Source of the DNA: an uncultured Actinomycetota bacterium | GTDB lineage: Bacteria; Actinomycetota; Actinomycetes; Actinomycetales; Cellulomonadaceae | Direction of reading: 5' to 3' | DNA length: 64,000 bases | NCBI GenBank assembly: GCA_963850545.1 | Contig: CAWKLP010000002.1 | Coordinates: 1,501,934 to 1,565,933 of the forward strand | Shown: piece after piece, positions 15,474-50,017 of the stretch | Layout: the number at the start of each line of letters is the position of its first letter | Position numbering within the stretch: position 1 is the first letter of the stretch | Notes under the pieces: model-generated | Databases searched by the model: none | Told to the model about the DNA's origin: nothing | Seen by the model: only the letters and a program-made list of their open reading frames with translations | Program-made: the position numbers and the translations under genes

Positions 15474-17696
<2,223 letters not shown>

Positions 17697-21966: not shown

Positions 21967-22001
21967 CTCCCGGACCTGCAGAGGCTCCCCAGGAGGAACT
22001 C

Positions 22002-22121: not shown

Positions 22122-22133
22122 GCGGCCCTCAGC

Positions 22134-22206: not shown

Positions 22207-22208
22207 CC
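22171..22208 (+). repeat. attL core (38 bp)
   Basis: AGCAGGGGGTTGCGGGTTCGAGTCCCGCTGGCTCCACC, identical to 49980-50017. Confidence 0.95.
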
Positions 22209-22659: not shown

Positions 22660-22662
22660 CCC

Positions 22663-31721: not shown

Positions 31722-31929
31722 ACCTCAGCGAATCACCGTGGCAGTTTCGACGCTGAGGCGCCACGCGCTACCAGACTGCGGTTCACCCGCATGCGCCGTA
31801 GCCGCCCTTAGCAGTCCTGCCCTCCTCGCCACCGAGGCTCCCTGCGCGGTCACCACGAGGGGACCTGCGCCCTCAAGCCCGTCAGGAACCCGGTGGCACC
31901 CGACGCGGCTGGTGTGACACGGTGTCGCC

Positions 31930-33507
31930 GTGACCTCGGGCAGCGTGATCGATGCGTACACCAGCGAGCAGGTGCAGACGGCCGTAGCAGGCGCCTTGGC
32001 GGTTGCGCGCAGTGAGGACGAGCTGATCCGGAGGGCTTCGTTCGGCCTGGCGCAGGTGTGTCTGACAGAGCTGCGGGACAGATTCGGATCGGCGCATGGA
32101 CGTACCGCCATTCTCTTTGTCGGCACGGGCAAGAACGGCGCGGACGCGATGGTCGCGGGCAAGCATCTGCGTGAGCGTGGCGTCGCGGTGCACGCGGTCG
32201 CGACCAGCGGCCACGTGGATGCGATCGGGACGCGTCATCTCGACGTCCCGGTCATCGACGCGACCGATGCAGCGGGGCTCAAGCAGGCTCTCGATCTACT
32301 CGCGGGCGCGGACATGGTGGTCGACGGAATCGTCGGCGACGCGATGGTCGGAAGCCTGCGCGCTCCTGCGTGCACCCTCGTGGAGACGATTCCGGACACC
32401 GCTCTGGTCGTCGCTGTGGATCTGCCCAGCGGTGTGGACCCAGATTCGGGCGCGATCAGTGGCGTGCACGTGCGGGCGGATGTCACGGTCACGTTCGCGG
32501 CATACAAGCGGTGCCTGCTGCTGCCTCCGGCAGCCCAGGCCGCGGGACGCTTGGTGTTCGTCGACGTCGGGATCTCGCCGCGCCTCGACCCTGCGGGCGA
32601 GGTCCAGCGACTGACTCCGTCGGGTGTCGCTGAGCGTTGGCCAGTGCCGGGACCTGGTGATCACAAGTATTCGCGTGGCCTGCTCGGCATCGTCGCAGGG
32701 TCGGACCGGTACCCGGGCGCAGCGGTACTGGCGTGCCTGGGCGCCTTCGGGACGGGCGTGGGCATCGTCCGGTATACAGGTCCGCGCCATGTGGGCGACC
32801 TGATTCTGCAGCACGTGCCAGAAGCTGAGAGGTTCCCCGGGAAGGTGGACGGCTACCTGCTGGGCTCAGGCGTGCTCGATGACCCAGATCAGGACCGCGC
32901 GATCGATGAAGCTCTGGCGACCGGTTTGCCATGCGTGGTCGACGCCGGGGCCATCGAGACGTGCGTGCGTCGACGAGCAGCGGGCGACCGGCCCACACCG
33001 GGAGATCGCATCTTGCTGACGCCACATGTCGGTGAGTTGGCTGGTTCCCTGGCCGCGTTCGGGTACGAGGCGACGACGACGGACATCCTCCAGCGGCCTT
33101 ATGAGCACGCGCTGCGGGTCGCGGAGGCGGCCGAGGTGACGGTGCTGTTGAAGGGCTCGACCACGATCGTCGTTGGGCCGGATGGTCGAGCATTCAGCCA
33201 GGACGAAGGGCCTGCTTGGCTAGCCACTGCCGGGTCAGGTGATGTGCTGGCTGGGATCGCCGGTGCGCTCACCTCGGCCGGCCTTACCGCGCTGGACATA
33301 GGTGCCATGGCTGCGTTCGTTCACGGCCGCGCGGCACGTATCGCGGCGGACGACGGCCCGCTGCGAGCCAGCCAGATCGCCGAGCACACGCCGACGGCGG
33401 TGCGGGAACTGCTGGCGGAACGAGAAGCGTCGGTCAGGCCGCGAGCAGGCCGCCGCGGCGGGCGAGGCCGTGCACGTGCGGGCGGGCGCGGGCGCGGTCC
33501 CGAATGA
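31930..33507 (+). CDS. nnr: Bifunctional NAD(P)HX epimerase/dehydratase homologue (YjeF/NnrDE)
   Basis: GTGKNGAD, VAVDLPSGV, HKYSRG, TPHVGEL, LLKG, LATAGSGDVLAG. Confidence 0.85.
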   Translation: MTSGSVIDAYTSEQVQTAVAGALAVARSEDELIRRASFGLAQVCLTELRDRFGSAHGRTAILFVGTGKNGADAMVAGKHLRERGVAVHAVATSGHVDAIGTRHLDVPVIDATDAAGLKQALDLLAGADMVVDGIVGDAMVGSLRAPACTLVETIPDTALVVAVDLPSGVDPDSGAISGVHVRADVTVTFAAYKRCLLLPPAAQAAGRLVFVDVGISPRLDPAGEVQRLTPSGVAERWPVPGPGDHKYSRGLLGIVAGSDRYPGAAVLACLGAFGTGVGIVRYTGPRHVGDLILQHVPEAERFPGKVDGYLLGSGVLDDPDQDRAIDEALATGLPCVVDAGAIETCVRRRAAGDRPTPGDRILLTPHVGELAGSLAAFGYEATTTDILQRPYEHALRVAEAAEVTVLLKGSTTIVVGPDGRAFSQDEGPAWLATAGSGDVLAGIAGALTSAGLTALDIGAMAAFVHGRAARIAADDGPLRASQIAEHTPTAVRELLAEREASVRPRAGRRGGRGRARAGGRGRGPE

Positions 33508-34666
33508 TCAGTTCGCGCAATAGCTCGCGAACGATCGTGGAGTCGTGAACCTCGTCGGAGGAGATCTGCTCGGCGTCCAGTAGGACCAGTGCGGCGGACT
33601 CGTCTTCGCCGCGTCGCACGAAACCCCGGGCCGTGGAGATCAGTGCGGCTGACCGGCGTTCCACGCTTGGGATGTTGTTCAGGTTGAGGCGGGCTGACAG
33701 CTCAACTACGTCGTCCGGGCGCCCGAGCTCGGCGTTGATCGCCACGGCGTGGATGTCGACGTTCCCGGCACCGAACTTCGTCCACGGGTCGTAGTAGCCA
33801 GGCCCGAGGGCGTTGGCTGCGTCCTGCGCGACGCGGTGCAACGCCCAGGCGCGGCCGTCCTGATCGGACTGCGCGGCGCTGACCGCCGCCGCCAGGTGCA
33901 GCATCCCGTACGCGCCCAGAAGGTCCTTGCGCGGATTCGCGGGGTCGATGCGGGTGTGCACCTCGTCGGCAGCGACCAGGCAAATTCGGGTGGCTTCGTC
34001 CTGATGACCTGCGCGCCGGTAAGGACCTGACAGTGCCCAGGCGGACAGCGCGATGAGGTAGGGGTCGTCGGCCTCGCGGGCAATGTGAGCAGCGCGGTCG
34101 GACACGACCCAGGCCAGGTCCCCGGACGGGACGTGGTGCAACCACTGGCGCGTGATCTGGTAGGCGCCCGCCAGCGTGCGAGCGCTGCGCGCCCGGTCCG
34201 ACGACGTGGCATGGGCGGCGTGCGCATCAGCGACGAGTGCGGGAAGAAGGGCACCGACGCCGCGGTGCGCCGAAGGCGACTCATGCCAGATCGTCCAGGC
34301 GTCATCGACGCGGCCCGCCACGTCGGTCAGGTCGGGTGCCGGATCGGTGACCGGGATCGGTCCTGCAGTGCGCATGATGACCTCGCGCAGCGCAGTCACG
34401 GTCTCAGCCTGGGACGGACCGGTGCCAGGGGTCAGCGCATCCAGAGGCCGGCCGATCAAGTCGTCGACGGTGCAGCCGATGACTGACGCGATCCGGACCA
34501 GGTCCGTGAGCCGCTCGGCGTGCCGGCGGCCCTGCTCCACTGCGGAGACCCACTGGACGGACTTGCCGATGCGCTCGGCGAGCGCAAGCTGCGTCACGCT
34601 GGCCGCGCGACGGTGAGCGGCGATTGCCGCTCCCACACCACGTAATAGGTCCGCGTCGTTTGTCAT
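33434..34666 (-). CDS. Xre-family regulator with large helical C-terminal domain
   Basis: IAAHRRAASVTQLALAERIGKSVQWVSAVEQG HTH, followed by ~330 aa of Ala-rich helices. Confidence 0.8.
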   Translation of the reverse strand: MTNDADLLRGVGAAIAAHRRAASVTQLALAERIGKSVQWVSAVEQGRRHAERLTDLVRIASVIGCTVDDLIGRPLDALTPGTGPSQAETVTALREVIMRTAGPIPVTDPAPDLTDVAGRVDDAWTIWHESPSAHRGVGALLPALVADAHAAHATSSDRARSARTLAGAYQITRQWLHHVPSGDLAWVVSDRAAHIAREADDPYLIALSAWALSGPYRRAGHQDEATRICLVAADEVHTRIDPANPRKDLLGAYGMLHLAAAVSAAQSDQDGRAWALHRVAQDAANALGPGYYDPWTKFGAGNVDIHAVAINAELGRPDDVVELSARLNLNNIPSVERRSAALISTARGFVRRGEDESAALVLLDAEQISSDEVHDSTIVRELLRELIIRDRARARPHVHGLARRGGLLAA

Positions 34667-34711
34667 GGCCACCACGATAGGCGGCCTGCGGGGTAACCAA
34701 CAGGCTCAGAA

Positions 34712-34729
34712 CTGCTACGCGTGTAGCAG
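34712..34729. promoter_or_regulatory. Candidate operator in the divergent promoter of the tailoring cluster
   Basis: CTGCTAC-GCGT-GTAGCAG inverted repeat. Confidence 0.5.
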
Positions 34730-34847
34730 CCCTCGCGGGTCTCTCGCTCATAGCGTCGTTTTCGTCGGTGGGCTGCGTCCCAGCAGCGGCCCGCCGACTG
34801 CCAGAGCACCAACCATGCCGAGCACGACGTAGTGACACGAGGGGGAC

Positions 34848-35192
34848 GTGATGGGACTTCGAGGCCACGACTTGGACCTGGTCAAGCACGATCACCCGAC
34901 GCCGGTCGCCGAGCGGCCGCCGGTCGATGATCTGACGCGCGCGCTGGGCGACGCGTTGACGGCGATACGCGCCCTCGGTCCCAACCGGATCGAGCTGGTC
35001 ACCGTGACCAAGGATCGGATCTCTCTGCAGCCCACGGACCTGGAAGACGGCCAGCAGATCGCCCACGCTCTGGGCTGCGATCTTCCACTGGATCACCGGA
35101 TGTTCGTGCCCGGGCACACACTCTGGACCGGGACCCGCTACGGACTGGAGATTCAGGTCCGGTCGGTCTTGCGTCAGGTGGTGGCCCGATGA
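34848..35192 (+). CDS. Hypothetical protein, first gene of the cluster
   Basis: GAGGGG RBS; ATGA overlap with the HAD gene. Confidence 0.6.
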   Translation: MMGLRGHDLDLVKHDHPTPVAERPPVDDLTRALGDALTAIRALGPNRIELVTVTKDRISLQPTDLEDGQQIAHALGCDLPLDHRMFVPGHTLWTGTRYGLEIQVRSVLRQVVAR

Positions 35193-36313
35193 ACGCCGCA
35201 ACCGTCACCTGCATACGGACCCTCGTGGCGCTCGACATCGACGGGACCCTCGTGGACGGCAAGAGCAAGATCCCGCCCGGGACGGTTGAGGCGCTGGACC
35301 TGGCCCGCGCGGCAGGACACGAGGTCGTACCCGCCTCCGGGCGGTCGCTCGCCGGATTGCTGCCAATCGCGGTCCGGTTGGGGCTTACCGACGGATGGGC
35401 AGTGGCCTCCAACGGCGCCCTGACCGTACGCCTGGATCGGTCCGCGCCGTCGGGGTACGACGTCGTTGACGCCCGGACGTTCACTCCAGGGCCGGTGATC
35501 AGCCGCGCCGTGGACCTGGTCCCGGGTGTCCGGGTCGCGGTGGAGGAAGTCGGGTGGGGGTGGCGCACGAACCACCCCTTCGCCCCGGGAGAGCTCAACG
35601 GGCAGCAGAAGCCAGCGACGCTGGACTACCTGACGTCCGAGCCAGCAACCCGGGTCGTGCTCGCTGCACCAGGCATCGGGCGGTTCGTCGATGCGCTGGG
35701 TGCTGCCGGGGTCACGGTCACCCCGGCGGGGCCGAACTGGTGCGATGTGACAGCGCTCGACGTCGACAAGGCGGTCGCGCTCGATGGGGTGCGTAAGCAC
35801 CTGCACATCCCCGCTGAACGCACGGTGGCGGTCGGCGACGGCATGAACGATCTGACGATGCTGGCCTGGGCCGGGCGCTCGATAGCTATGGGGCACGCAC
35901 CCGCGATCGTGCGCAGCGCGGCCGTCGAAACGACCGGCACGATCGACGAAGCCGGGGCGCTGCCCGTTCTGGCCTCGCTCGTCCCGGACATCGACGGTTC
36001 ACTGTCATCGCTGGCCGCCCAGATTGCGGTCGGGGCGCGCACCGCGCCGGGCCCGGCCGTTTTGCGGGTGTGGCACGGCACCGGGCCGGACCTGTCCCGG
36101 TGCGAGATTTGGACCCTCCAGACTTCGCACTGGGTCCGGCACGCACCTGTCCCGTCCGGCGTCGGCACCACCATGCGCGCAATCGAAGCCGCCGCGCTGG
36201 AGGCGGGCCTGCCGTTCCCACGCGGGGACGAGGGCCGCCGCCGCGCTCAATGGCGCAGTGTCACCACCCGCAGTGGTCCGGCCGGGTTCGAACTCCCGCT
36301 CAACAGTTTCTGA
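35189..36313 (+). CDS. Cof-type HAD hydrolase (phosphatase) with C-terminal extension
   Basis: ALDIDGTL (motif I), ASGRS, DKAVAL, AVGDGMNDLTML. Confidence 0.88.
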   Translation: MNAATVTCIRTLVALDIDGTLVDGKSKIPPGTVEALDLARAAGHEVVPASGRSLAGLLPIAVRLGLTDGWAVASNGALTVRLDRSAPSGYDVVDARTFTPGPVISRAVDLVPGVRVAVEEVGWGWRTNHPFAPGELNGQQKPATLDYLTSEPATRVVLAAPGIGRFVDALGAAGVTVTPAGPNWCDVTALDVDKAVALDGVRKHLHIPAERTVAVGDGMNDLTMLAWAGRSIAMGHAPAIVRSAAVETTGTIDEAGALPVLASLVPDIDGSLSSLAAQIAVGARTAPGPAVLRVWHGTGPDLSRCEIWTLQTSHWVRHAPVPSGVGTTMRAIEAAALEAGLPFPRGDEGRRRAQWRSVTTRSGPAGFELPLNSF

Positions 36314-36486
36314 CGCCGAAGACTTGCAGCCGCCCCGCATCGATCTCCGGCTGCATGCCCGCCTCCAGACGGCGGGAAGGCCGAGGTCCCCACCCCCGGG
36401 AACCTCGGCTGCCCCCACGAGCGCCTAGAACGAACAGGGGCCAGCCAGCCCTGGCAGCTCCACGAGGTTCCGACCGGAGGCGAACG

Positions 36487-37827
36487 ATGAGTGAGATCGC
36501 AGACAGGACGGCGGGCTCCCGGCAAGGCATGGGCTGGGGTGGCGCGGAGGCAACCGCTGTTGTCGTTCGTCCCGGACCTCGTCTGGCAGGCAGGGTCCGA
36601 GTGGACGGCTCGAAGAACGCGGCACTACCGCTGCTCGCCTGCGCTGCGGTGACGGAAGGGCCGGTGCACGTGTCGAACGTTCCGTCGAGTGCGGATGTGG
36701 GCGTGATGCTCCTGCTCCTGGAACACGCTGGCTTCCAGGTGGACCGCTCGACGGACGATCAGCAGTCCGTGACCGTTCGCCTGGCGTCGGAGCACCGCCC
36801 TCACGGACTGGAGCTCGCTGGGGCCATCCGGGCGTCGTACTACTTGGTTCCCGCACTCCTGGCAGCCCATGGCCGCGCCGACCTGCCGTGGCCTGGTGGC
36901 TGCCAGATCGGAGATCGTGGGATGAACCTGCACTTCGACGTCTACGCCGCATTCGGTGACGAGATCGAGCTTGACTCCACTGGGTACCACGTAGCGGCGC
37001 GGGAGACTCCGGCCCGGGTGACAATCGATCTTCCGTTCCGGTCCCGGGGCGCGAGCGTCGTGGCCGTTCTGCGGGCCGTGGTCGGACGCGTGCGAATGGA
37101 GTTGGGCAACCCGAATCTCTCCCCAGAGTTCACCGGCATCCTCGACAGCCTGCGCTCAGTCGGCTGGCGCATCGATCTGCGTCCGTCCCGCCTCCGGATG
37201 GTTCCACCACAGGTGGTTGACGCTGCGCTGGTGTCGTGGCGGGTTCCCGGAGACAAGGTCGAGGCCGGGACTCTGGCATGCGCGATAGCGGCCACGGGCG
37301 GCAGTGGGCGTGTCGAGGGGGTCGCTGGTCGTGACGTCGAGTGCGTCGCTCGACTTCTCAACAGCGTCGGCGTTGGCATCGGCGTCGAGGACGACGCGCT
37401 CGTCGTCTTCGGCGATGGTGAGCGGATAGGCCATGGTTTGCGAGCGAGCGCATCCCTGGATCCAGCGGGCCTGGACGCCGACTTCGAGCCGGCGCTGATG
37501 GCCCTGGCGCTGTGTTTGCCCGGGACCCACGAGTTTTCCGACGCGATCAACCCCGGACGGCACGGCAATCTGCTGGCGCAGCTCGCCCGCCTGGGTGCGG
37601 ACATCGAGGCGCTGACCGCGACCACGGCCCGCCTGACAGGGCCGCAGCATCTTGCCGGAGGGACGGCAGAGGCTACGGACATCCGTACCGGTTCGGCCCT
37701 ACTCATTGCTGCCTTGACCGCGTACAACGAGACGGCGGTGACTGGACTCGCACAGCTTCGACGTGGGCACGCCGACCTGCCCGGGAAGCTCCGTGCGCTG
37801 GGCGCGGACGTTCGGGAGCGACCGTGA
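36487..37827 (+). CDS. MurA/NikO-like enolpyruvyl transferase
   Basis: DGSKNAALP, IRASYY, PGGCQIGDR, TDIRTG, LRRGH; GGAGG RBS; diverged acceptor-binding motifs. Confidence 0.85.
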   Translation: MSEIADRTAGSRQGMGWGGAEATAVVVRPGPRLAGRVRVDGSKNAALPLLACAAVTEGPVHVSNVPSSADVGVMLLLLEHAGFQVDRSTDDQQSVTVRLASEHRPHGLELAGAIRASYYLVPALLAAHGRADLPWPGGCQIGDRGMNLHFDVYAAFGDEIELDSTGYHVAARETPARVTIDLPFRSRGASVVAVLRAVVGRVRMELGNPNLSPEFTGILDSLRSVGWRIDLRPSRLRMVPPQVVDAALVSWRVPGDKVEAGTLACAIAATGGSGRVEGVAGRDVECVARLLNSVGVGIGVEDDALVVFGDGERIGHGLRASASLDPAGLDADFEPALMALALCLPGTHEFSDAINPGRHGNLLAQLARLGADIEALTATTARLTGPQHLAGGTAEATDIRTGSALLIAALTAYNETAVTGLAQLRRGHADLPGKLRALGADVRERP

Positions 37828-39029
37828 CCGAACGCATCCTGGAGCGGATCGTGGCGACGACTGACGTGCATTCCCAGCTCCGTGAGGTCGGCCCGCTGCT
37901 CGCCGGGCTGCACCGTGCACGGCGCGACGCTCTGGTCGTGGACTGCGGGGACTTCTTCGAGGGAACCGGCTACTACCGACTCGGCCAGGGCCGGATCGAG
38001 ACGGAGATCATGAACTCGATCTACGACGTCGTCGCCCCAGGAAACCACGGCTGGCGCCACCATCTGCAGCCCGGCCTGCGCGAGCTGACCGTGTGCGCCA
38101 ACGTCGCCGACGCCTTCAGCGGCGAGGCACTGTTCCGCCGCCTGCACCGGACCGTCATCGGCGGACGGCGGGTGGGCGTGACCGCCGTCGTTGGCGAGCA
38201 GGCGTTTGCGGCGATACCCATGGGCGAGCGGTCTGGGCACCGTGTCGTCGACCCTGTCAGCGCGCTCATGGACGTGTGGGAGAAGCATCGTCATGAGGTC
38301 GAGGCGTGGGTGCTGCTGTCACACTCCGGCTTTGAACACGATGTTCGCCTCGCCGAGGCTTGCCCGTTCCTCGACGTCATCTTCGCGGGCCACTGCCATA
38401 GTGAGCGCCATGGACCCGAGCGGGTCGGCTCAACTGTCGTCGTCAAGGGGGCTGAACTCGCGGCAGGCTTCTCGACCGCTGCACCAGCCGCGGAAGGTTG
38501 GCGCGCGAGTAGCGCCCGGTTCGAGCCGGTCGACACGCTTTCTGCGCCCCTGGAGTCGTTCGGCCGTCAGGTCGAACTCCTCCGCGACCAGTTGGCGACA
38601 GCGATCGGCCCGCTCGATCCCTCCTGGAGGGACCGCGACCTTGACCGCAGGGCTGCGCTCGAACAGATTGCCCAGCGTCTTCGCACAAGCGCGCCCTCTG
38701 CCGTGGTGGTCCTCAATGAATCCGCGCTGCGACAGGTCCACCTTGGGCAGGTGCTGACCGCCGACAACCTGCTTGCCATCGAACCGTTCGGCAACCGCGT
38801 CGTGCATGCCCGGGTCGAGCACGAGACAGATCTCTCAGCGCTGCTCGCTGAGCTTGGGGAGCGGTCCGGTCCCTTGGTCGTCGACCCCCACTCGGCTCCC
38901 GACCGTGTGAGCAGCGTCCTGACCACGGACTACCTCGCCGAGACGCTTCCCGTTCACAGCCCGCCCACGACAGTTCTCGAACTCAGCCAGGCCGTCCGTC
39001 ATGTCCTCTGCTCGGAGGTTACGTCATGA
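37824..39029 (+). CDS. Calcineurin-like metallophosphoesterase / 5'-nucleotidase-like (no signal peptide)
   Basis: TTDVHS, DCGDFFEG, PGNHG, LLSHSG, FAGHCH. Confidence 0.88.
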   Translation: MTERILERIVATTDVHSQLREVGPLLAGLHRARRDALVVDCGDFFEGTGYYRLGQGRIETEIMNSIYDVVAPGNHGWRHHLQPGLRELTVCANVADAFSGEALFRRLHRTVIGGRRVGVTAVVGEQAFAAIPMGERSGHRVVDPVSALMDVWEKHRHEVEAWVLLSHSGFEHDVRLAEACPFLDVIFAGHCHSERHGPERVGSTVVVKGAELAAGFSTAAPAAEGWRASSARFEPVDTLSAPLESFGRQVELLRDQLATAIGPLDPSWRDRDLDRRAALEQIAQRLRTSAPSAVVVLNESALRQVHLGQVLTADNLLAIEPFGNRVVHARVEHETDLSALLAELGERSGPLVVDPHSAPDRVSSVLTTDYLAETLPVHSPPTTVLELSQAVRHVLCSEVTS

Positions 39030-39562
39030 TCCTCACCGGTCCCGAGATCACTGCATCAGTGCGCGACGGGCGGTTGCGGGTCACGCCGTTCGAGCCCGCG
39101 CAGGTCAACCCGAACAGCTACAACGTGCGCCTTGGCCCGACTCTGATGACGTACGTGGACCCGGTCATTGATGCGCATCGGCCGAACCCGACGTCCATCA
39201 TCGAGATTGGCCCGAAGGGGTACGTGCTGCAGCCGAACGAGCTGTACCTCGGGCACACCCTGGAGGAGGTCGGCTCGGACGTGTTCGTGCCGCTGCTGTT
39301 CGGCCGGTCCTCGGTCGGGCGGCTCGGCCTGTTCGTGGAGATCACCGCCCCGATCGGTGACATCGGCTTCCACGGCCAGTGGACTCTCATGCTCGCCCCC
39401 ACCCGTCCGCTGCGTGTCTACGCCGGGATGAAGATCGGGCAGATCATGTTCTTCGTCGCCGCCGGCCCGCTCGAGCTGTACACGGGCAAGTACCAGGCAG
39501 CGCAGGGGCCGCAGGCCTCGCGCTACTGGCACGACATTCCACGCCCGGCGGCGGCCTCATGA
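39026..39562 (+). CDS. dCTP deaminase-like protein, copy 1 (RSS motif present, catalytic Glu absent)
   Basis: QVNPNSYNVRLG, GRSSVGRLGL, GDIGFHGQWTLM, YTGKYQ. Confidence 0.88.
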   Translation: MILTGPEITASVRDGRLRVTPFEPAQVNPNSYNVRLGPTLMTYVDPVIDAHRPNPTSIIEIGPKGYVLQPNELYLGHTLEEVGSDVFVPLLFGRSSVGRLGLFVEITAPIGDIGFHGQWTLMLAPTRPLRVYAGMKIGQIMFFVAAGPLELYTGKYQAAQGPQASRYWHDIPRPAAAS

Positions 39563-40095
39563 TCCTGACCGGCCCCGCGATCGCCGCCGCCGTCGCGGCC
39601 GGAGATATCACCATCGACCCGTTCGACCCGAACCGGCTGTCCGCGAACGCGTACGACTGGCGGCTCGGGTCAACGCTTCGGGTCTGCACCACGGATCTGG
39701 ACGCCGCGATTCCGACCCCCTTTACCGAGGTCACCATCCCTGAGTCGGGGTACGTCCTGGAACCCGAGGTCCTGTATCTCGGGGTAACCCTGGAGCAGAC
39801 GGCCTCCGACCGGTATGCCCAGATGCTCAACGGCGACCTTGTCACCGGCCGCCTCGGTATCTGGGTGCACGTCTCCGCGCCGCTGGGCCATGTCGGGCAC
39901 GCGATCCGCTGGACGCTGGAGATTCGCGCCGTCAGACCCGTTCGCATCTACCCGGGCATGACGTTCGGCAAGCTCATCTTCCTGCGCACTTACGGGGCGG
40001 CGGCCAGCTACCAGCAGCTCGGCCGCAAGTACACGTCGACCGACGGCATCGATATCTCCCGGCTCCACGAGGAACTCCAGGAGGACAACCCGTGA
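39559..40095 (+). CDS. dCTP deaminase-like protein, copy 2 (Glu present, RSS motif absent)
   Basis: RLSANAYDWRLG, GDLVTGRLGI, GHVGHAIRWTLEI, GRKY. Confidence 0.8.
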   Translation: MILTGPAIAAAVAAGDITIDPFDPNRLSANAYDWRLGSTLRVCTTDLDAAIPTPFTEVTIPESGYVLEPEVLYLGVTLEQTASDRYAQMLNGDLVTGRLGIWVHVSAPLGHVGHAIRWTLEIRAVRPVRIYPGMTFGKLIFLRTYGAAASYQQLGRKYTSTDGIDISRLHEELQEDNP

Positions 40096-41177
40096 CCGCT
40101 CGTGTGGCGACCTTCCTCGATCTGCCGGCGGCAAGCCCCGGCGGCAGCGTGGAACTGTTCCGCGATCTGTACGCCGGCACCGACCCGCTCATCCCCGCAC
40201 GAGCATTCATGCTCGACGCCGGCCACAACGGGCTCCCAGCCGTTCCCGGTCTGGGCCTGCTCGCGGTCGACGGCAAGTGCCTCGACGAGCCCGGATTCAC
40301 GGCGTACGTCACCGCCCTGCACCGCGCCCTGGCCGATGTGCTCGACCCGGGGGATGTCGATGTCGTCCACCTGCAACACCTCGCCTTCGGTGCCACTCCG
40401 GCGCTCCTGCGAACGCTCCCGGGCCACCCGGCCGTCGCCTTGGTCCACGGGACTGACCTGCTTTTCGCCGAGACCTACCCTGACCAACTGCGAGTCCTGC
40501 GCGACACAGTCCGCCGCGCGGACGCAATCGTCGTACCCACCTCGGCCATGGCAGACCGACTCCGCGTGCTGGCCCCAGCCGCGGATCGGGTAATGAAGAT
40601 CCCCTGGGGCATTCCCGACCACCTCCTCGCCGGACCGCTTCCACGACGCTCGTCCCCGAAGGGCACGCAACGGCTCATGTACGCGGGCAGGCTGACCCCC
40701 GAGAAGGGCGCCGACCGCCTCATCCAAGCCCTCGGTGCGGCCACGAACTTCACGCTCAGCATCGCCGCGCCGCCTCACGAGTTCCGCGCCCTCGGCCCAT
40801 CCCTACGACGGGCCGGGGTCGACGTCGACTACCTCGGGTGGCTCTCTCGACCCGATCTGTGGAAGGCATTCGCGGACCACGACGCGCTACTCATGCCCTC
40901 CACCACCCTGGAGGCCATGGGTCTGGTCGCCCTCGAAGCGCAAGCCTGCGGACTGCCCGTGCTCTACCAACCCGTACCCGGACTCGACGAGACACTCGGC
41001 GAGGCCGCCATGCCCACCGACTTCACCGACCCGGACCAAGTCGCGGCCAACCTGCGTCACCTCGCGTCGCCCGACCTGGTCGACGACCTCCGAGCTGCCG
41101 CCCGCACCAACGCCGCTCGCTTCCCCTTGTCCGCTACCGCCGCCTCGTTGAGCCAGCTCGGCGACAGCCTCGCCTGA
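40092..41177 (+). CDS. GT-B family 4 glycosyltransferase
   Basis: HGTDL, YAGRLTPEKG, PSTTLEAMGLVALEAQACGLPV (E-x7-E). Confidence 0.9.
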   Translation: MTARVATFLDLPAASPGGSVELFRDLYAGTDPLIPARAFMLDAGHNGLPAVPGLGLLAVDGKCLDEPGFTAYVTALHRALADVLDPGDVDVVHLQHLAFGATPALLRTLPGHPAVALVHGTDLLFAETYPDQLRVLRDTVRRADAIVVPTSAMADRLRVLAPAADRVMKIPWGIPDHLLAGPLPRRSSPKGTQRLMYAGRLTPEKGADRLIQALGAATNFTLSIAAPPHEFRALGPSLRRAGVDVDYLGWLSRPDLWKAFADHDALLMPSTTLEAMGLVALEAQACGLPVLYQPVPGLDETLGEAAMPTDFTDPDQVAANLRHLASPDLVDDLRAAARTNAARFPLSATAASLSQLGDSLA

Positions 41178-41255
41178 CCACAGACAGATCCAGCTATGCC
41201 GTCCTGGCCGCCCCTACGCTGACCAGGACGGCTAACCCGAGAAGCAGAGGAACCG

Positions 41256-42301
41256 ATGCCCTCCACCACCGAACACCTCCACGCCCTGGCGACCGCAGGA
41301 GTCCACAACGGCGTCTACCCCGGTGCAGTGTGGGCCGTCGGCAACGCCGACGGCGTGATCGACCGCGGCGCCACCGGCCTCCTGGACCCAACACGTTCCG
41401 ACGAGCCCATGAAGCCGGACACCGTGTTCGACATCGCGAGCCTCACCAAGATCCTCGCCGTCTGGACCACCATCGGGACCCTCTGGCAGGACAGGCACCT
41501 GGACCTCGACGAGCCCCTCGGCCAGCTCTGGCCCGGCGTCGCCGGATACCCGCTCGGCCAGGTCACCGCCCACCAGCTCCTCACCCACACCGCCGGACTG
41601 CCGCTGCGCGCCCAGCTCAAGAGCCTCTACGGCACCGACCCTGACGCCATCCGAAGCGGCGTCCTGCACGAAGCCCTGCACCGCCCACCGGGCCAGGCCG
41701 TGGAGTACACCGACCGCGCCGCCCTCATCCTCGGCTACCTCGCCGAGTACCTCAGCGGCGAGCAGTTGGACCATCTCGCCACCGACCGCGTCTGGCGGCC
41801 CGCTCGGCATGCGAGAGACCCGATATGGACCCCTGCCGACGAACGTGGCCGCGCGCTGCGCCCCCACCGAGCTCGACGACGAGACCGGCGCGCACCTCAA
41901 GGGCGTCGCTCACGACTTCTCCGCCCGCCTTCTCGGCGGCGTATCCGGCATCGCCGGAGCGTTCTCCACCCTCGACGACCTCACCGTGCTGCTGCGCTAC
42001 CTGCTGGACCCTGCCACCGCCGCGACGCCCCCGGGCTTCGGTCCCGAGTGGATCGCGCGAGTCCCTCAACGTCCACACCGGCGGCCTCGAACCGGCACGG
42101 GGCCTGTTCTGGCACCCGGCTCCCGGCACCGACCCCGCCGACCAGACCTGGACCCACTACGGCTTCACCGGCACCGCCATCTGGCTCAACCCGAAACAGA
42201 ACCACTGGGCGGTCCTGCTCACCAACAAGCTCTACTACACCCGCGACCGCGAACCCCTCGCTAGCATCCGCGACCAGTTCCGCGGCATCGTCTTCGGCTG
42301 A
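41256..42301 (+). pseudogene. Beta-lactamase-related serine hydrolase, two apparent frameshifts
   Basis: ASLTK (SxxK), EYTD, HYGFTG. Reading frame shifts near 41800 and 42060; could be real decay or assembly error. Confidence 0.8.
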
Positions 42302-42452
42302 TTCAGCCTCACGGACAAGCAGCGCGCGGCTGGCGCCTGGCGCTGACCCCGCGACGGTGATCCCAGAAGGCGCGGGAGGCCGGCACGCGGAGGCGACGGG
42401 CGGGGGACCCACCTCCGCGGCTCATCCCAGACCCAGACCCTCTCCAGACCAG

Positions 42453-42553
42453 TCCCACCACAACCCCCACATCACACCCAACCCCCACATCCCACCCCCA
42501 ATCCCTCACCCTCTACCACATCCCCCTAAATCACCCCCCAATTCCTCCCCCCA
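42453..42553. other. 101-nt tract with no G on the + strand (G-run-rich - strand)
   Basis: No G between 42452 and 42554; upstream of the relaxase. Confidence 0.85.
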
Positions 42554-42659
42554 GATCCCTCCCTCAAATTCCATCACGCCTCTTGCAGATTGAGGTACAT
42601 AGAGCAATTCCGGACCTGGTTCCGCTCGGACACCTCCTGCTGTAGGAGGTGTGCAGCGG

Positions 42660-45600
42660 ATGGCTGCGACGATTGCTGTGATGTCGGCAGGGGATGGGTA
42701 CTCGTACTTCATGAAGTCGGTCGCGACCGGCGACGTGGACCGGTCGATGAGTACCCCGTTGACGCGGTACTACACCGAGACCGGGACCCCGCCGGGCCGG
42801 TGGCTGGGTTCCGGGGTCGCGAGCCTCGGCTCAGACGAGCTGGGTCGCCTGCTCGTAGGCGATCTGGTGACCGAGGAGCAGATGGCCCGGCTCGTGGGCA
42901 AGGGCCTGGACCCGATCACCGGCGAACAACTCGGCCGCGCCTACCCGGTCTACGGCAAGGGCAAGGGCGGCAAGTCTCGGCGGGCGGTGGCGGGATATGA
43001 CTTCACGTTCTCGCTGCCGAAGTCCGCCTCGATCCTGTGGGGCGTGTCCGACGCCGGGATCCAGGAACAGATCGTCGCCGTCCACCGCGCCGCGGTGGTC
43101 AAGGTGTTCGAGTTCATGGAACACGAGCTGGCCGCGACTCGGACCGGTGCGTCTGTCGCCGGGAACGCGACGAGCGAGGCAGGGGAGGGCGGCGCGGTCG
43201 CCCAGGTCGACGTCACCGGTTTGATCGCGATGTTCGTTCGATCACTGGGACTCGCGGACCAACGACCCGCACCTGCACACCCACGTCGTGGTCTCCAACA
43301 AGGTCAAGACGCTGCTCGACGGGAAGTGGCGGTCCCTGGACGGGCGCGGGTTGCACGCCGCGACGGTCGCGATGTCCGAGCTGCACGAAGCGATCGTGAT
43401 GGACGACCTGACCCGCACCCTCGGCGTGGGAGTGGGAACTACGGGCCAGGGCCGGGCAGGGCCGTAACCCGGCTGGTCGATCAAGGGCGTCCCGGACGAC
43501 CTGGTCGATTGCGTTCTCCCAGCGCTCGGAGCAGATCAACACCCGCACCGACGAACTGATCGCGCAGCACGTCGCGAAGTACGGGCGCCGGCCCAGCCCG
43601 AGCACGATCGACAAGTACCGCCAGCAGGCCAGCAAGGAGACCCGCCCGGACAAGACCCACCACTCCCTGGCCGACCTGACCACGGAGTGGCGGCAACGCA
43701 CCGCCGAGATCCTGGGCCGTGACCCAGGCAGAGTGGGCTCGCGAACTGGTCGCGAACCTGCCGCCGCGGATGCTGCGAGCCGATGACGTCCCGCTGGACC
43801 TGCTCGACGACCTTGCACAGACAGTGCTGATCGTGGTCTCGGAGAAGACGCCGGTGTGGCGACACTGGAACCTGTACGCCGAAGCCGTCCGGCAGACCAA
43901 AGATCTGAGGTTCGCCACCGCCGAAGACCGCATGGCCGTGGTCGCTGCGATCACCGATCGGGCCGAGGCTGGCTCGGTGCGGCTGACGCCGCCCGACCTC
44001 GCTGCCACGCCTGCCGAGTTCCGGCCGCGCGGACGGCACCAGCATCCTGCGCCCGAAGCACTCCGCCCTCTACTCCTCACAAGCCCTGCTCGACGCAGAG
44101 GCCCGGCTCCTGGACCGGGCCAGTACCCGCACCGCACCGACGATCACGCTGGACGCCGTCGAGCACGCCATCACCAAGGGCAGCCCCGGCGAGCGGGCGT
44201 GGACGGTCTCAGCCGAGCAGGCCGAAGCCATCGCCCGTGTCGCTGTCTCGGCCCGGCAGGTCGACCTGCTGGTCGGCCCGGCCGGGACGGGGAAGACCAC
44301 GACCATGCGCGCTCTGCGCGCGGCATGGGAGCAGCGAGCACGGGGCAGGGTCCGTGATCGGGCTGGCGCCGTCGGCTGCGGCTGCGGCGGTCCTGGCCGA
44401 TGACCTGGGCATCGAGTGTGAGAACACCGCGAAGTGGCTCTACGACCACGTCCACCAAGGCACGGCGTTCCGTGACGGGGCAGTTGGTCATCATCGACGA
44501 AGCCACGCTCGCCGGGACCCTCACCCTGGACCGGATCACCGCGCACGCCGCGGAGGTGGGGGCGAAGGTGCTGCTGGTCGGTGACCCGGCCCAGCTCCAG
44601 GCCGTCGAGGCCGGCGGAGCCTTCGCTCTCCTGGCCGCCGCCCGCAACACCGAGGACGGTGTGCCGGAGCTGACCGAGGTGCACCGGTTCACTGCACACG
44701 TGGGAGAAGCACGCCTCCCTGGCCCTGCGCCACGGACACGACGAGGCGATCGACGCCTACCTGGACCAAGGCCGGGTCCGCGACGGTGACACAGAGGCCA
44801 TGGTCGAGGCCGCCTATGCCGCCTGGCAGACCGACCTCGCAGACGGCAAGGACTCCGTGCTCGTCGCCGGGGACAACGAGACCGTGCGGGCGGTCAACGA
44901 GCGCGCCCGCGCCGAACGACTCCAGACCGGGGCCACTGAACCCGGCCGGGCTGTTCGACTCGCCGACGGGCTCGACGCTTCGGCAGGGGACGTGGTCATC
45001 ACCCGGCGTAACGACCGCCGCCTGTGCACCCGGAACGGCTCCTGGGTACGCAACGGCGACCGGTGGACCCTCGTCCAGGTCCGCGACGACGGGTCGGTCA
45101 TCGTGCGCCGACCGGAAGCCAAGTACGGCAACACGATCGTGCTCCCCGCCACCTACGCCGCCGAGCACTTCGACCTCGGCTACGCCGTGACCACCTACCG
45201 CGCCCAGGGGATCACGGTCGACACGAGCCACCTCATCACCGGGCCGGGCATGACAAGGGAGCACCTGTACGTCGGCCTGACCCGCGGGCGGGAGACCAAC
45301 ACCGCCTACGTCATCACCGACACCCCATTGGAGATCACGCCTGACGACTACGAGGACCTGACACCCAGGGGCGTCTTGGCCCGGATCGTCCGCACGGTCG
45401 GAGCCGAGAAGGCCGCCACGCAGGCGCGTCGGGACGAGCGCGAGCGGTGGGGATCGGTCGCACAGCTCGCCGCCGAGTACGAAACCCTCGCCGCAGCCGC
45501 ACAACGCGACCGCTGGACCGGACTCCTCCACCACTCCGGACTCTCAGCCCGCGACGCGGACCAGGTCATCACCGCACCCGCATTCGGAGCCCTGACCGCC

Positions 45601-46179
45601 GAGCTCCGCCGCGCCGAAGCCGACGGCCACGACGTCGAACACCTGCTGCCCCAACTCGTGGCCCAGCGCGGCCTGGACGACGCCGACGACGCGGCAGCCG
45701 TCCTGCACCACCGCCTTGCCACAGCCACCACACAACCCGTCCGCCACGACGGGCTGAGCATCCAACGCCGCTCGCCGCGCCGAATCGCGGGCCTTCTCCC
45801 TGAGGCGATCGGACCTATGACGAGCGAATACCGGCAGGCACTCCAGGAGCGGGCAGCACTGATCGAGCGACGCGTCACCGACATCGTCCAGCGCGCCATC
45901 CATGACCATGAACCCTGGCTCGCCCCGCTCGGCCCCGAACCAGGCGACACCAGAGCCCGACGCACCTGGCAGACCGCCGCACGCACGATCGCCGCTTACC
46001 GCGACCGCCACGGCATCAGTAGCGCGGCACCACTCGGCACCGAGCCAGTCACCACCGACGCACAGGCCGTCGACGCCGCGCGCTCCGCGACGGCGCTACG
46101 TCGAGCGACACGACCCCCGAGCGCACAGCTCCGGCGACCAGCCGTCGGGGCCCACGAGGGTCGAGGTATCGGCATGTAG
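42660..46179 (+). pseudogene. MobF/TrwC relaxase-helicase, multiply frameshifted
   Basis: VMSAGDGY, RYYTETGTPPGRWLG, YDFTFSLPKS, out-of-frame FDHWDSRTNDPHLHTH (HUH), GPAGTGKT, IIDEA, VGDPAQL, GYAVTTYRAQG. Confidence 0.88.
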
Positions 46180-46865: not shown

Positions 46866-46965
46866 TCGGCGTCGGTCTGGTCACCTACGATGAGATCCTC
46901 GTGGGCGGTTGAAAGATGCTCCGAGTGTTTCCCGTAGCCGACCCCGGATGTGACGGGAGAGCGAC

Positions 46966-48195
46966 ATGCCAATCGTGCCGTTCGGTGATTTGTCCGAACC
47001 CAACGAGGTTACGTACGCGGAAGGACGTCTCACCACGCGCACGTACGCGAGCAAGAATTTCACTGCGGCTTTCGGACAAGACCAAGGGCACCCGTCTCGG
47101 TATATCTACCGGGCCTTCGACGAAGTCGTCACCGCGGACGACGATGAATGGGATTGGACGGTCGATGTGGTCTCCACAACTCCCGGCGCGCGCAAGCAGA
47201 TCCAACTCCAAGTGGCCCGTTCTGCGGGTGCCGTCCGGAAGATACGCATCCAGAAGGTTCCGACCTCCGGCGACCTTACCCGGCTGGAGAACGTGCTGGA
47301 ACTCGACCGGGACCAGTCCACTCGCCTCATCGACATGTTGCGGGCACTTGACGCAATACCGATAGAAGGAGAGAGCACGGTCCATGTCGACGATCAGTTG
47401 CTCCGAGACGTCTTTGCCGACCCCAACGCAATCTCAAGGGTCTACGCCGACGACCCCGACCGCTTCCGTGCACTCATCGAGAGCGACGCGAACGCCAGTG
47501 ACGTGATTGCCCTTCAGCACCGGCGGGAGATCGCCGCGACCATGCGGCAGTGGCTCGGCGATGAGGAAGCTTTTGCAAGGGCGAATGCTGCGGCGGGTGG
47601 CCCGGAGAGGGCTTGGCAACAGCTGCTTGAAGCGAATCCGTGGGTGCTCGGCGTGGGTCTTGGTGGTCAACTTCTGACCTCTTGGGAGACGGGGAAGCTG
47701 GAACAGACCGTAGTCGGAAGGAGCATCAAGGGCGTAGGCAAGCGCGCCGACGCGCTATTGCGCACCGCCGGCCTCGTTCGATCCCTCGTCTTCGCTGAGA
47801 TCAAGCACCACCAGACCCGCCTGCTCGGCGATGAATACCGCTCCGGCTCGTGGAGCCCATCAAAGGACCTCGCTGGCGCAATCGTTCAGGTCCAGCAGAC
47901 TGTCCACCTGGCAGGCCGAGAGTTCGATGACTACATCCAAGACCAGGCTGAAGACGGAGAACTGCTCGGCGAAGGAACCTTCTTCCTCCAGCCCCGTTCG
48001 TTTGTGGTCGTCGGCTCGCTCGACCAGCTCACAGGCAGCAGCGGAGGCCCAATTCCAGACAAGGTGCGCAGCTTCGAACTGTTTCGCCGCAACCTACACG
48101 AGCCTGAAGTAATTACGTTCGACGAGCTGGTCGCGCGCGCAGAGCTGCACATCGAGGGCGCCGAGCTCACAGACCGCGGTCTCGCTCCACGCTGA
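46966..48195 (+). CDS. sduA: Shedu anti-phage nuclease (DUF4263)
   Basis: WQQLLEANPWVLG, RADALL, FAEIKHH, DLAGAIVQVQ, PRSFVVVG, SFELFRRNL, ITFDELVARA. Confidence 0.88.
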   Translation: MPIVPFGDLSEPNEVTYAEGRLTTRTYASKNFTAAFGQDQGHPSRYIYRAFDEVVTADDDEWDWTVDVVSTTPGARKQIQLQVARSAGAVRKIRIQKVPTSGDLTRLENVLELDRDQSTRLIDMLRALDAIPIEGESTVHVDDQLLRDVFADPNAISRVYADDPDRFRALIESDANASDVIALQHRREIAATMRQWLGDEEAFARANAAAGGPERAWQQLLEANPWVLGVGLGGQLLTSWETGKLEQTVVGRSIKGVGKRADALLRTAGLVRSLVFAEIKHHQTRLLGDEYRSGSWSPSKDLAGAIVQVQQTVHLAGREFDDYIQDQAEDGELLGEGTFFLQPRSFVVVGSLDQLTGSSGGPIPDKVRSFELFRRNLHEPEVITFDELVARAELHIEGAELTDRGLAPR

Positions 48196-48198
48196 GCC

Positions 48199-48609
48199 AT
48201 GCACATCAAAACCGGCAGGCGGCCGTCCTGCGCGTGGTGTCGTGGGGGGATCGGGTGGAACACCCGCCAGGACGCCAAGTTCTGCTCCAGAAAGTGTCGC
48301 CAGGCCGACTACAGGTTCAGAGCCAAGTTCGGGAACGCGCCTGCGCGAACCGTCCCCGCCGTACGCGACCGAACGCCGATCGACACCGAAAACTTCGACT
48401 TCCCGGAGCTTCCGCTGCTGTACGCGGACCGGCCGGTGTACTGGGTGGTCTGCACAGTACCGGCTGTCTGCCGCCGGTGCCGTGCAGAGATCGGGTCAGG
48501 AGCCGACGCGATGATTTTCGGACCCGGGATCTACTTCCTCAACGAGTTGGGTCCGTTCTGCAACGGGGACTGCGCACTGGACTTCGTCTACGCGCGCCCG
48601 GTCGCATGA
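48199..48609 (+). CDS. Small Cys-rich (putative Zn-binding) hypothetical protein
   Basis: CAWC...FCSRKC and CRRC...FCNGDC; starts 3 nt after the Shedu stop. Confidence 0.5.
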   Translation: MHIKTGRRPSCAWCRGGIGWNTRQDAKFCSRKCRQADYRFRAKFGNAPARTVPAVRDRTPIDTENFDFPELPLLYADRPVYWVVCTVPAVCRRCRAEIGSGADAMIFGPGIYFLNELGPFCNGDCALDFVYARPVA

Positions 48610-49048
48610 CCCGGGGCCGTTACGCCTCTGACTCCCTGACCTGGGTGGACGTCGTTTGAAGTGTTACCGATGTCAGACGCCACTCCTAGGATTAGGCCCA
48701 GTAGCGATCACCCGCTCGAGAAACACAGGATGTAGCGTGTCGAACACTCGTCCAACTACAACCTGCGATGTCGGCGCAAGTGCCGGTGGGCTCGGATAGA
48801 GTGTTCGCTGTGATCAGTTCGTGACGTACTGACATCTCGATGTTTGGGACGGCCGGACAGCACAAAGCCCAGGTGCGGGAACACCTGGGCCGAGTGCGCC
48901 ACGCAAGGCAGCACGAAGCCGCGCTGCAAGGTGACTGGTTGTTCTTATCAGAGAACTCGCCGCCATCTTGCCATGCCTCGAAGGTCCTGGCGACCAATCG
49001 GGGAGACCAACCGGTGGCGCGGTGTGAACGAGAAGGGTTCATACCGCA

Positions 49049-49816: not shown

Positions 49817-49979
49817 CCAGCGACCACCGGCGCCGACGCTTGCCTACGGATGCCAACCGTGTCAGGCTGAACCTGAGCGGCGCAGGAATGGCGGAATCTA
49901 GCCATTTCTGCACCAACATCAGGGCTAACACGGCCCACTCAAGACAGCCTTGCGAGCGAGCGTCGAAATCCGCTCCACC

Positions 49980-50017
49980 AGCAGGGGGTTGCGGGTTCGA
50001 GTCCCGCTGGCTCCACC
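49980..50017 (+). repeat. attR core (displaced tRNA-Ala 3' half, followed by A completing CCA)
   Basis: Identical to 22171-22208. Confidence 0.95.

Follow-up and report, generated by a model that had tools for sequence, protein, structure and literature searches.

A mobile six-gene cassette of actinomycetes with a putatively split dCTP-deaminase-type site

The closest described systems each resemble a different part of the gene cassette analysed here. NikO and PolA of nikkomycin and polyoxin biosynthesis have the EPSP-synthase fold, transfer enolpyruvate from phosphoenolpyruvate (PEP) to a nucleotide and are followed by later phosphatase steps. Dcd and Dcd:dut enzymes, such as E. coli Dcd, M. 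tuberculosis Rv0321 (2qxx) and M. jannaschii DCD-DUT, are characterized by the PF22769 fold, trimer-type motifs and a C-terminal lid. Prokaryotic viperins, which yield 3'-deoxy-3',4'-didehydro-CTP (ddhCTP), the depletion systems based on dCTP deaminases or dGTPases, and AvcD have in common that they attack phages via the nucleotide pool or a nucleotide analogue and are carried on mobile islands. The cassette is located at positions 34848-42301 of a stretch of 64,000 nucleotides, referred to as the window, from an uncultured bacterium of the Cellulomonadaceae (assembly GCA_963850545.1, contig CAWKLP010000002.1, positions 1,501,934 to 1,565,933). Its core codes for a MurA-like enolpyruvyl transferase, a 5'-nucleotidase-like phosphoesterase, two proteins of the dCTP-deaminase fold (DCD-A and DCD-B), a GT4 glycosyltransferase and a serine hydrolase. 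The cassette is real, widespread and mobile. It probably converts a cytosine or uracil nucleotide to a derivative that carries enolpyruvyl and sugar groups, and it may serve in conflicts with phages and plasmids or provide an antibiotic or a signal. The one new molecular feature that we infer from the sequences is a DCD heteromer with a split active site.

Gene content and distribution of the cassette

Eight co-oriented open reading frames (ORFs) occupy the plus strand at 34848-42301, and their GC content at third codon positions (GC3) as well as their translations confirm that they are coding. The first two are a small ORF without a family (34848-35192, 114 residues as drawn) and a Cof-type HAD-IIB phosphatase that is extended at its C-terminus by about 100 residues (35189-36313; PF08282, E=2e-34; TIGR00099), which are coupled by an ATGA overlap at 35189. 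They are followed by the genes of the MurA-like enolpyruvyl (1-carboxyvinyl) transferase (36487-37827; PF00275 EPSP_synthase, E=1e-32; NCBIfam PRK09369, 248 bits), of a metallophosphoesterase resembling 5'-nucleotidases and UDP-sugar hydrolases (37824-39029; Metallophos PF00149), of DCD-A (39026-39562; PF22769, E=4.5e-40) and DCD-B (39559-40095; PF22769, E=5.4e-25), of a retaining GT4 glycosyltransferase of the GT-B type (40092-41177; PF00534, PF13692, PF13439), and of a serine hydrolase with the beta-lactamase fold (41256-42301; PF00144). The five genes between 36487 and 41177 are linked by four-nucleotide start/stop overlaps, which were read directly as GTGA at 37824 and 40092 and as ATGA at 39026 and 39559. 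A preliminary description of the locus, made from the window alone, had already listed the eight co-oriented genes and their overlaps, and it is borne out by the ORF and GC3 reading and by the junction sequences; the families that it assigned to the genes are right according to Pfam and NCBIfam.

Two of the genes require comment. The start of the small ORF may lie further downstream, giving a product of probably about 88 residues, because homology to other copies of the cassette begins at 34975; an 88-residue gene was called at this position in the metagenomic locus L003. The serine hydrolase gene belongs to the family named in the preliminary description but is not intact. Compared to the intact orthologue of the Promicromonospora locus L008 it contains two single-nucleotide insertions (a C at 41796 and a T at 42053), which distribute the protein over three frames and leave PF00144 matches on both fragments. 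Neither insertion lies within a long homopolymer; the frameshifts are either real decay or a sequence error. In the 173-nucleotide gap between the HAD gene and the MurA-like gene (36314-36486), three nested inverted repeats were observed, for example GCCGAGGTCCCC/GGGAACCTCGGC at 36380-36409. Located at the junction of accessory and core genes, they could act as a terminator or as another regulatory structure inside the cluster.

In order to determine the distribution of the cassette, one genome per species was scanned with a profile of the phosphoesterase. This gave 256 stretches containing a relative, and the best 80 of the 256 were fetched; they originate from Streptomyces, Kitasatospora, Streptacidiphilus, Nonomuraea and, in two cases, Promicromonospora. 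The presence of each gene was assessed by tblastn with the window proteins, and tblastn identities were also used to rank the conservation of the cassette proteins. The MurA-like enzyme, the phosphoesterase and the serine hydrolase were matched in 80/80 loci each, and DCD-A, DCD-B and GT4 in 79/80 each. The order and spacing of these six genes are identical in 79 of the 80 loci. The single exception, L077, has cleanly lost DCD-A, DCD-B and GT4 as a block and retains the genes of the MurA-like enzyme, the phosphoesterase and the hydrolase. The HAD phosphatase and the small ORF, on the other hand, were found in only two of the 80 loci (L008 and L009, both Promicromonospora), in the window and in L003. 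Because they are confined to Promicromonospora-type copies, they are lineage-specific additions and not part of the core. Thus, of the eight genes that had been proposed to form a unit, six do so, and genomes of no fewer than 79 species contain this set. The preliminary description would have been refuted if the genes were not found together elsewhere; this objection is clearly disproved.

Translationally coupled and widely conserved, the six genes form an operon that is horizontally mobile among actinomycetes. A discrete block of 7.3 kb (34975-42302), which nearly coincides with the cluster as given above, is 81-86% identical at the nucleotide level to L003, L008 and L009, and the flanking sequences are unrelated. 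The nearest relative of the window proteins is found in Promicromonospora soli, with 98% protein identity for the MurA-like enzyme and 97% for the phosphoesterase; the GC content of the window is 64-71%. The six genes were also found in Kitasatospora setae, in S. zaomyceticus and on one Streptomyces plasmid. The most conserved cassette protein is DCD-A, which is 74-84% identical between Promicromonospora and Streptomyces, compared to 50-65% for the MurA-like enzyme and the phosphoesterase. Three genomes contain two cassettes each, with 72-78% DNA identity between the copies, namely those of Kitasatospora sp. NPDC006697, S. hokutonensis R1-NS-10 and Streptomyces sp. MBT53 (locus pairs L010/L011, L053/L071 and L064/L080).

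A relaxase of the MobA/VirD2 type is encoded within 10 kb of the cassette in 47 of the 80 loci, and a DUF3631 protein in 22. In K. setae, a relaxase gene and a NikA-like gene lie downstream of the cassette. Full-length matches of the phosphoesterase were obtained on three Streptomyces plasmids, one of which (NZ_CP108158) was confirmed to carry the complete cassette. The cassette of L008 adjoins an nSTAND5 NTPase gene and an intact TrwC gene, that of L009 a YobI-like NTPase gene, and the neighbours in L003 are AAA_15/21, Trypco2, a nucleoside deoxyribosyltransferase-like gene and an SMC-like gene.

By full-text literature searching no paper that describes the gene set of the cassette was found, and GT4, dCTP and MurA are not mentioned in such a context in the eLife 2020 paper on conflict systems. 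The statement of the preliminary description that no described pathway has this gene set remains valid, as no known cluster, defence model or paper was matched. The pathway is uncharacterised; the superfamilies of the components are well known.

Active sites of the core enzymes

The residues of the two DCD proteins were compared in 63 orthologues of DCD-A and 60 of DCD-B, with M. tuberculosis Dcd:dut as the reference. Both proteins have the PF22769 fold. DCD-A scores above the cut-off of TIGR02274 (101.1 versus 92.8 bits), whereas DCD-B with 62 bits lies below it. In DCD-A, the loop Arg101-Ser102-Ser103, Gly105, Arg106, Asp119 of motif 3 and Lys170, Tyr171, Gln172, Gly176, Pro177 and Ser180 of the C-terminal lid are all invariant, but the catalytic Glu129 is replaced by a Met in 63/63 sequences. 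DCD-B contains this Glu in 60/60 sequences, shares the invariant Gly105 and has kept the lid in part. Its loop reads Asp/Asn-Arg-Thr (Asp-Leu-Val in the window), position 106 is mostly a Ser or Ala (an Arg in the window), and Asp119 is replaced by a His in 60/60. Further invariant residues of DCD-B are His112, His122 and Arg131. In neither protein do the catalytic Glu and the Arg-Ser-Ser/Arg loop ever occur in one chain. Glu129 is the equivalent of Glu138 of E. coli Dcd; Glu138 and Arg115 of that enzyme have reportedly been found to be essential. As DCD-A and DCD-B each lack a different essential element, neither is a complete deaminase. The two genes had been described as two dCTP deaminases, which is correct with regard to the fold; they do not code for ordinary enzymes of this type but for a complementary pair.

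A search with DCD-A among 1.84 billion representative proteins identified fused DCD proteins with the same division of motifs. P0242 and P0243 (532-549 residues) contain three DCD domains each, of which domain 3 alone has the Arg-Ser-Ser loop and domain 1 alone the Asp/Glu pocket. In P0290 (347 residues, two DCD domains), the loop is found in domain 1 and the sequence LGH...WVLE in domain 2. Judged by their motifs, these proteins are natural covalent pseudo-heteromers. Since they repeat the split seen in DCD-A and DCD-B, the pair probably forms a composite site as a heteromer. Active sites of the Dcd/dUTPase superfamily are located at the intersubunit clefts of the trimer (PMC4827122). By analogy, DCD-A and DCD-B would be obligate partners in a heteromer, and each A-to-B interface would hold a single composite site of the deaminase type.

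Closest to DCD-A are domains with a Glu-to-Gln exchange, whose fusion partners are a PEP-synthase-like dikinase, methyltransferases or HAD domains. One such fusion occurs in a second conserved actinobacterial operon (L088, 8001-18502; L089, 8001-18307), in which the DCD domain with the Glu-to-Gln exchange is joined to a PPDK_N/PEP-utilizer dikinase of about 830 residues. This operon also encodes a separate B-like DCD (LGH..WTLE, with a degenerate loop), a 410-residue protein, a NagD-like HAD protein, a Phosphodiest+DUF6001 protein, a DUF6031 protein, an SRPBCC+ScmC protein and an AAA_18 kinase. In S. virginiae, the dikinase operon adjoins three ATP-grasp genes of the L-amino-acid-ligase type and TldD/PmbA genes.

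Residues of the MurA-like enzyme were analysed in 54 orthologues, 53-54 of which retain K22, N23, R91, C115, R120, D305, D369, R371 and R397; W95Y, P121G, V122M, K160F, V163R, T304A and F328N are fixed replacements. Among the positions taken to contact UDP-N-acetylglucosamine (UDP-GlcNAc) in MurA (structure 1UAE), N23, R91, S162, G164 and D305 are kept, and all orthologues have other residues in place of W95, K160, V163, T304 and F328. The window protein scores below both MurA equivalog cut-offs, namely 231.3 versus 392.7 bits for TIGR01072 and 248.3 versus 297 bits for PRK09369. The comparison with the PDB gave 104-151 bits to 32 structures of MurA and 79.5 bits to NikO (4fqd); by sequence, the protein is thus not of the NikO/PolA type to which it had been assigned. 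We read it as an active enolpyruvyl transferase, whose acceptor need be neither UMP nor UDP-GlcNAc.

Invariant residues of the phosphoesterase are D14, H16, D43, N74, H75, H167, H190 and H192; they make up the D-x-H, GD, GNH, H and GHxH motifs of binuclear metallophosphatases. The conservation of these residues and of those listed for the MurA-like enzyme suggests that both active sites are catalytically competent. An AlphaFold2 model of the phosphoesterase had a mean predicted local distance difference test (pLDDT) score of 89.6. The best Foldseek match was the 5'-nucleotidase c4898 of E. coli (3ive/3ivd; TM 0.74, E=2e-25), which was crystallised with cytidine or uridine; the next matches were NadN, CD73 and UshA. 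The alignment covers both domains of the fold including the C-terminal nucleotide-binding domain; PF02872 was not detected by sequence. The protein comprises 401 residues, compared to about 550 for secreted 5'-nucleotidases, and an N-terminal signal peptide is not visible. A paralogue with 42% identity belongs to a different cluster on plasmid NZ_CP108490 (L007, 170232-187536), together with genes for a nonribosomal peptide synthetase (NRPS), a large HAD-IA protein, an AAA ATPase, two phosphotransferases, a Nudix protein, ABC and MFS transporters and a methyltransferase. The product of this cluster is probably an antibiotic of the nucleoside or nucleotide type.

The nearest PDB entries to GT4 are the UDP-Glc:tetrahydrobiopterin glucosyltransferase, PimB' and MshA, and the nearest NCBIfam models are MshA and BshA; these relatives suggest an enzyme of the small-molecule or lipid-acceptor type. 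A match to the GT4-conflict family PF20706 (35 bits) was weaker than those to the generic GT4 models and was not used. Among PDB entries, the intact orthologue of the serine hydrolase comes closest to family VIII carboxylesterases, class C beta-lactamases and D-amino-acid amidase. When the translations of the six core proteins were read by eye, without a predictor, neither N-terminal signals nor membrane-spanning segments were seen; the phosphoesterase and the serine hydrolase are taken to be cytoplasmic.

Proposed pathway and its alternatives

The reading that we favour, with slightly less than even confidence, is that the six core enzymes act inside the cell on a pyrimidine nucleotide and that their product plays a role in conflicts with phages or mobile elements. 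The pathway would start from the pyrimidine nucleotide and proceed via deamination, enolpyruvyl transfer, dephosphorylation or diphosphate cleavage, glycosylation and hydrolysis. DCD-A and DCD-B would assemble into a hetero-oligomer with the trimer architecture of dUTPase and Dcd. DCD-A would provide the phosphate-binding Arg-Ser-Ser/Arg loop and DCD-B the base pocket and the catalytic Glu of the composite site at the A-to-B interface. A cytosine (deoxy)nucleoside triphosphate bound there would be deaminated to a uracil nucleotide; the His that DCD-B contains in place of the motif-3 Asp may alter or abolish the release of pyrophosphate. The MurA-like enzyme would then move the enolpyruvyl group of PEP to a hydroxyl of the uracil nucleotide or to one of a nucleotide-sugar that is not UDP-GlcNAc. 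The phosphoesterase would strip the 5'-phosphate or cleave a nucleotide-diphospho linkage, a step to which the HAD phosphatase may add in Promicromonospora. Finally, GT4 would attach a sugar to the small-molecule intermediate, and the serine hydrolase, acting like an esterase or amidase, would accomplish a last deprotection or maturation. Expression would be gated by the divergently encoded Xre-type regulator; most Streptomyces copies also encode an anti-sigma-type HATPase_c_2 protein.

An intracellular conflict role, for example by means of a nucleotide analogue or a manipulation of the pool, seems preferable to that of a secreted antibiotic because no exporter or resistance gene is conserved, because the cassette travels with mobile elements and because diverged duplicate copies exist. 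The context also includes Shedu in the element of the window and NTPases of the defence type (nSTAND5, YobI, AAA_15/21) beside the Promicromonospora-type copies. A more specific version assumes an inducible mobile immune module. Here, the split-site DCD would make the uracil nucleotide from dCTP or CTP, to which product the MurA-like enzyme would add a 3'-enolpyruvyl cap, such that an obligate chain terminator of phage polymerases results; the nucleotidase, GT4 and the esterase would serve to produce, store or detoxify a pro-form that carries a sugar. The chemical logic of such a 3'-capped terminator would parallel that of the viperin product ddhCTP. This version is speculative, and we consider it improbable.

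Several points weigh against a pathway with a conflict role. Both the order of the steps and the substrates are conjectural throughout, and the allocation of loop and Glu to different subunits is deduced from the architecture of the dUTPase superfamily and from the fused proteins. The copy in the window may be inactive, because its last gene is frameshifted and the adjacent relaxase gene is fragmented. Some Streptomyces copies, for example L004, are found among ordinary-looking genes. A comparison with PADLOC-DB v2 yielded no match for any cassette protein, only a generic HTH match of the Xre regulator. The phage records contained only ordinary Dcd with at most 37% identity and no cassette, and no relative of the phosphoesterase was found in IMG/VR. 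The absence of an exporter does not exclude secretion through a general transporter. The preliminary description had deduced a conflict role from the genes surrounding the cassette; the association with mobile elements turned out to be general, but the cassette proteins are not recognised by PADLOC.

A strong rival is the assumption that the genes are a cryptic, minimal biosynthetic cluster for a secreted nucleoside natural product, be it an antimetabolite or a signal, which corresponds in essence to the main reading of the preliminary description. An enolpyruvyl transferase, phosphatases, a glycosyltransferase and a hydrolase represent typical tailoring chemistry; the phosphoesterase has its paralogue in the plasmid cluster L007 with NRPS, kinases and exporter, and the sister DCD operon of S. 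virginiae lies beside ATP-grasp ligase and TldD/PmbA genes. WhiJ-like Xre/HATPase regulators are common beside the specialised-metabolism genes of Streptomyces. However, the analysis of conserved flanks in the 80 loci revealed no exporter, resistance or scaffold-forming gene that is conserved together with the cassette. It would be unusual for a biosynthetic cluster to be linked to relaxases and to have two diverged versions in one genome, and no match to the literature or to a known cluster was found. A secreted product is therefore possible, though on balance we think it unlikely.

Two further alternatives explain fewer of the conserved genes. Firstly, the cassette might only deplete or sanitise the nucleotide pool, by converting dCTP via dUMP to deoxyuridine, with the other enzymes as passengers. 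A DCD and a 5'-nucleotidase could indeed drain dCTP, and the depletion of deoxynucleoside triphosphates (dNTPs) by deaminases has reportedly been recognised as an antiphage strategy. To our knowledge, however, the defensive deaminases have the zinc-dependent cytidine deaminase (CDA) fold and none has the Dcd fold. Moreover, all six genes are retained in 79/80 loci and are translationally coupled, and L077 has lost DCD-A, DCD-B and GT4 yet kept the MurA-like enzyme, the phosphoesterase and the hydrolase. This makes mere pool depletion quite improbable.

Secondly, an alternative or drug-insensitive MurA might remodel envelope precursors or confer self-resistance, acting on peptidoglycan or teichoic precursors together with GT4 and a protein resembling beta-lactamases and DD-peptidases. 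The MurA-like enzyme is nearer to MurA than to NikO and retains Cys115, and the cassette contains both a GT4 and a hydrolase of the penicillin-binding fold. But the enzyme falls under both MurA equivalog cut-offs and has fixed substitutions at presumed UDP-GlcNAc-contact positions. MurB is missing, the reading of the translations by eye, without a predictor, gave no membrane or secreted protein, and the two DCDs, the most conserved members, and the 5'-nucleotidase would have no role. We regard an envelope function as very doubtful. A chance juxtaposition on a mosaic island without functional unity is practically refuted by the conservation in 79/80 loci, the discrete mobile block of 7.3 kb and the coupled reading frames.

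If the favoured pathway exists, hundreds of Streptomyces and related species carry an unrecognised route to a modified pyrimidine nucleotide or nucleoside. It would represent either a natural-product class or a small-molecule immune strategy, new in both cases, that is spread by plasmids and integrative elements.

Host element, regulatory region and known systems

In the window, the cassette is the cargo of an integrative element of 27.8 kb, as it is positioned between att repeats together with integrase and relaxase genes. attL (22170-22208, plus strand) is the 3' end of a tRNA-Ala gene (22134-22208), and attR (49979-50017, plus strand) is a direct repeat of 38-39 bp of this end. These positions are approximate; the 24-nucleotide core of the repeat has two exact matches versus zero expected. 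A tyrosine integrase (22660-23982 from stop to stop, plus strand; PF00589, PF14659) and a TrwC-type relaxase/helicase (42651-46179, plus strand) thus flank the cassette along with the att repeats, as in the cargo of integrative mobilisable or conjugative elements. The relaxase gene is spread over several frames, with the TrwC domain split into 42651-43559 and 43225-43467, and positions 42984-45716 align to the intact gene of L008, which encodes 1159 residues. The element may be decaying, or the assembly may carry indel errors. A full-length Shedu protein SduA (46954-48195; Pfam E=6e-29, PADLOC E=1e-123) is encoded just inside attR. Both the integrated element and Shedu had been recognised in the preliminary description, correctly as the repeats, the integrase, the relaxase and the PADLOC match indicate.

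Further genes between the att repeats code for a ParB-like protein, HTH proteins, an IS4/5 transposase and a bifunctional NAD(P)HX epimerase/dehydratase (31918-33507, plus strand; YjeF_N and Carb_kinase); the ORFs beyond Shedu (48196-48609 and 49028-49660) have no family. On the other side, the element is inserted beside a region (15474-22208) consisting of two large ORFs (15474-20483), a DUF3566 gene assigned by Pfam, and tRNA-Ile and tRNA-Ala genes (21893-22208). Only size and position suggest that the two large ORFs are gyrB and gyrA; if so, the insertion would lie in the region of the chromosomal origin.

Upstream of the eight genes, a divergent Xre-type regulator of 413 residues is encoded on the minus strand (33434-34675), as had been noted before. 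It consists of an N-terminal HTH_31 domain (Pfam E=2e-8) and a helical C-terminal part of about 330 residues. Its gene overlaps the 3' end of the convergent NAD(P)HX gene by about 74 nucleotides. In 58 of the 80 loci, a divergently encoded homologue (25-28% identity) is present at about -3.2 kb. In L003 and L008, this place is taken by a non-orthologous protein that likewise combines an HTH with a helical part; the architecture with a divergent regulator is hence kept by replacement. In 67 loci, a protein of about 146 residues with the HATPase_c_2 signature of anti-sigma kinases is encoded between the Xre homologue and the MurA-like gene; it was assigned to HATPase_c_2 by Pfam in L001 and is annotated as "ATP-binding protein" in L006. 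The intergenic region of the window between the regulator and the operon contains a perfect 7-nucleotide inverted repeat, CTGCTAC-N4-GTAGCAG (34712-34729), which might, as a weak inference, be a candidate operator. A search of positions 33000-43000 with Rfam found no family, a scan for sigma-70 promoters gave 0 sites, and terminator-like sites were not more frequent than expected from shuffled sequences. In sequencing runs, fragments of the region were found only in four DNA runs of soil metagenomes.

Compared to the known systems, the cassette shares single elements with each and the combination with none. The catalytic residues of NikO and PolA are conserved in the MurA-like enzyme in addition to the fold, but the nikkomycin and polyoxin pathways have no counterpart to the DCD pair, GT4 and the serine hydrolase. 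Conversely, they comprise radical-SAM (NikJ/PolH) and peptide-ligase partners, for which no genes were found in the copies whose gene content was examined, namely the window, L001, L003, L004 and L006; the corresponding statement of the preliminary description holds for these. As the conserved families number six, there is no room for a partner of the NikJ/PolH type. With MurA, the MurA-like enzyme shares the fold and the catalytic and PEP-binding residues K22, C115, R120, D305, D369, R371 and R397. However, MurA belongs to a housekeeping locus, whereas the MurA-like gene is found on mobile elements, without MurB and with W95Y, K160F, V163R and F328N fixed. Under the proposed pathway, the MurA-like clade would extend the MurA/NikO enzymes by a third acceptor specificity.

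The antiphage systems acting on nucleotides consist of one or two proteins without sequence relationship to the cassette, which has no PADLOC match. The closest characterised relatives of GT4 are MshA, BshA and BGluT, which act in the formation of mycothiol, bacillithiol and pterin glucoside, respectively, with only 30-42 bits. Enzymes of this type are retaining, have the GT-B fold, use small soluble acceptors and are often followed by a phosphatase step. The dikinase operon of L088 and L089 likewise pairs a Glu-less A-like DCD with a B-like DCD and encodes HAD and phosphodiesterase enzymes, but it lacks the MurA-like enzyme, GT4 and the serine hydrolase, and its remaining enzymes are entirely different. 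Known Dcd and Dcd:dut enzymes are homotrimers or homohexamers with all motifs in each chain. In the cassette, by contrast, the motifs are divided over two paralogues that are always adjacent. If the proposed heteromer forms, the dUTPase/Dcd superfamily would gain in DCD-A/DCD-B its first natural heteromer, with an active site built from two gene products, a design that is also seen in the fused two- and three-domain proteins and in the second, uncharacterised operon.

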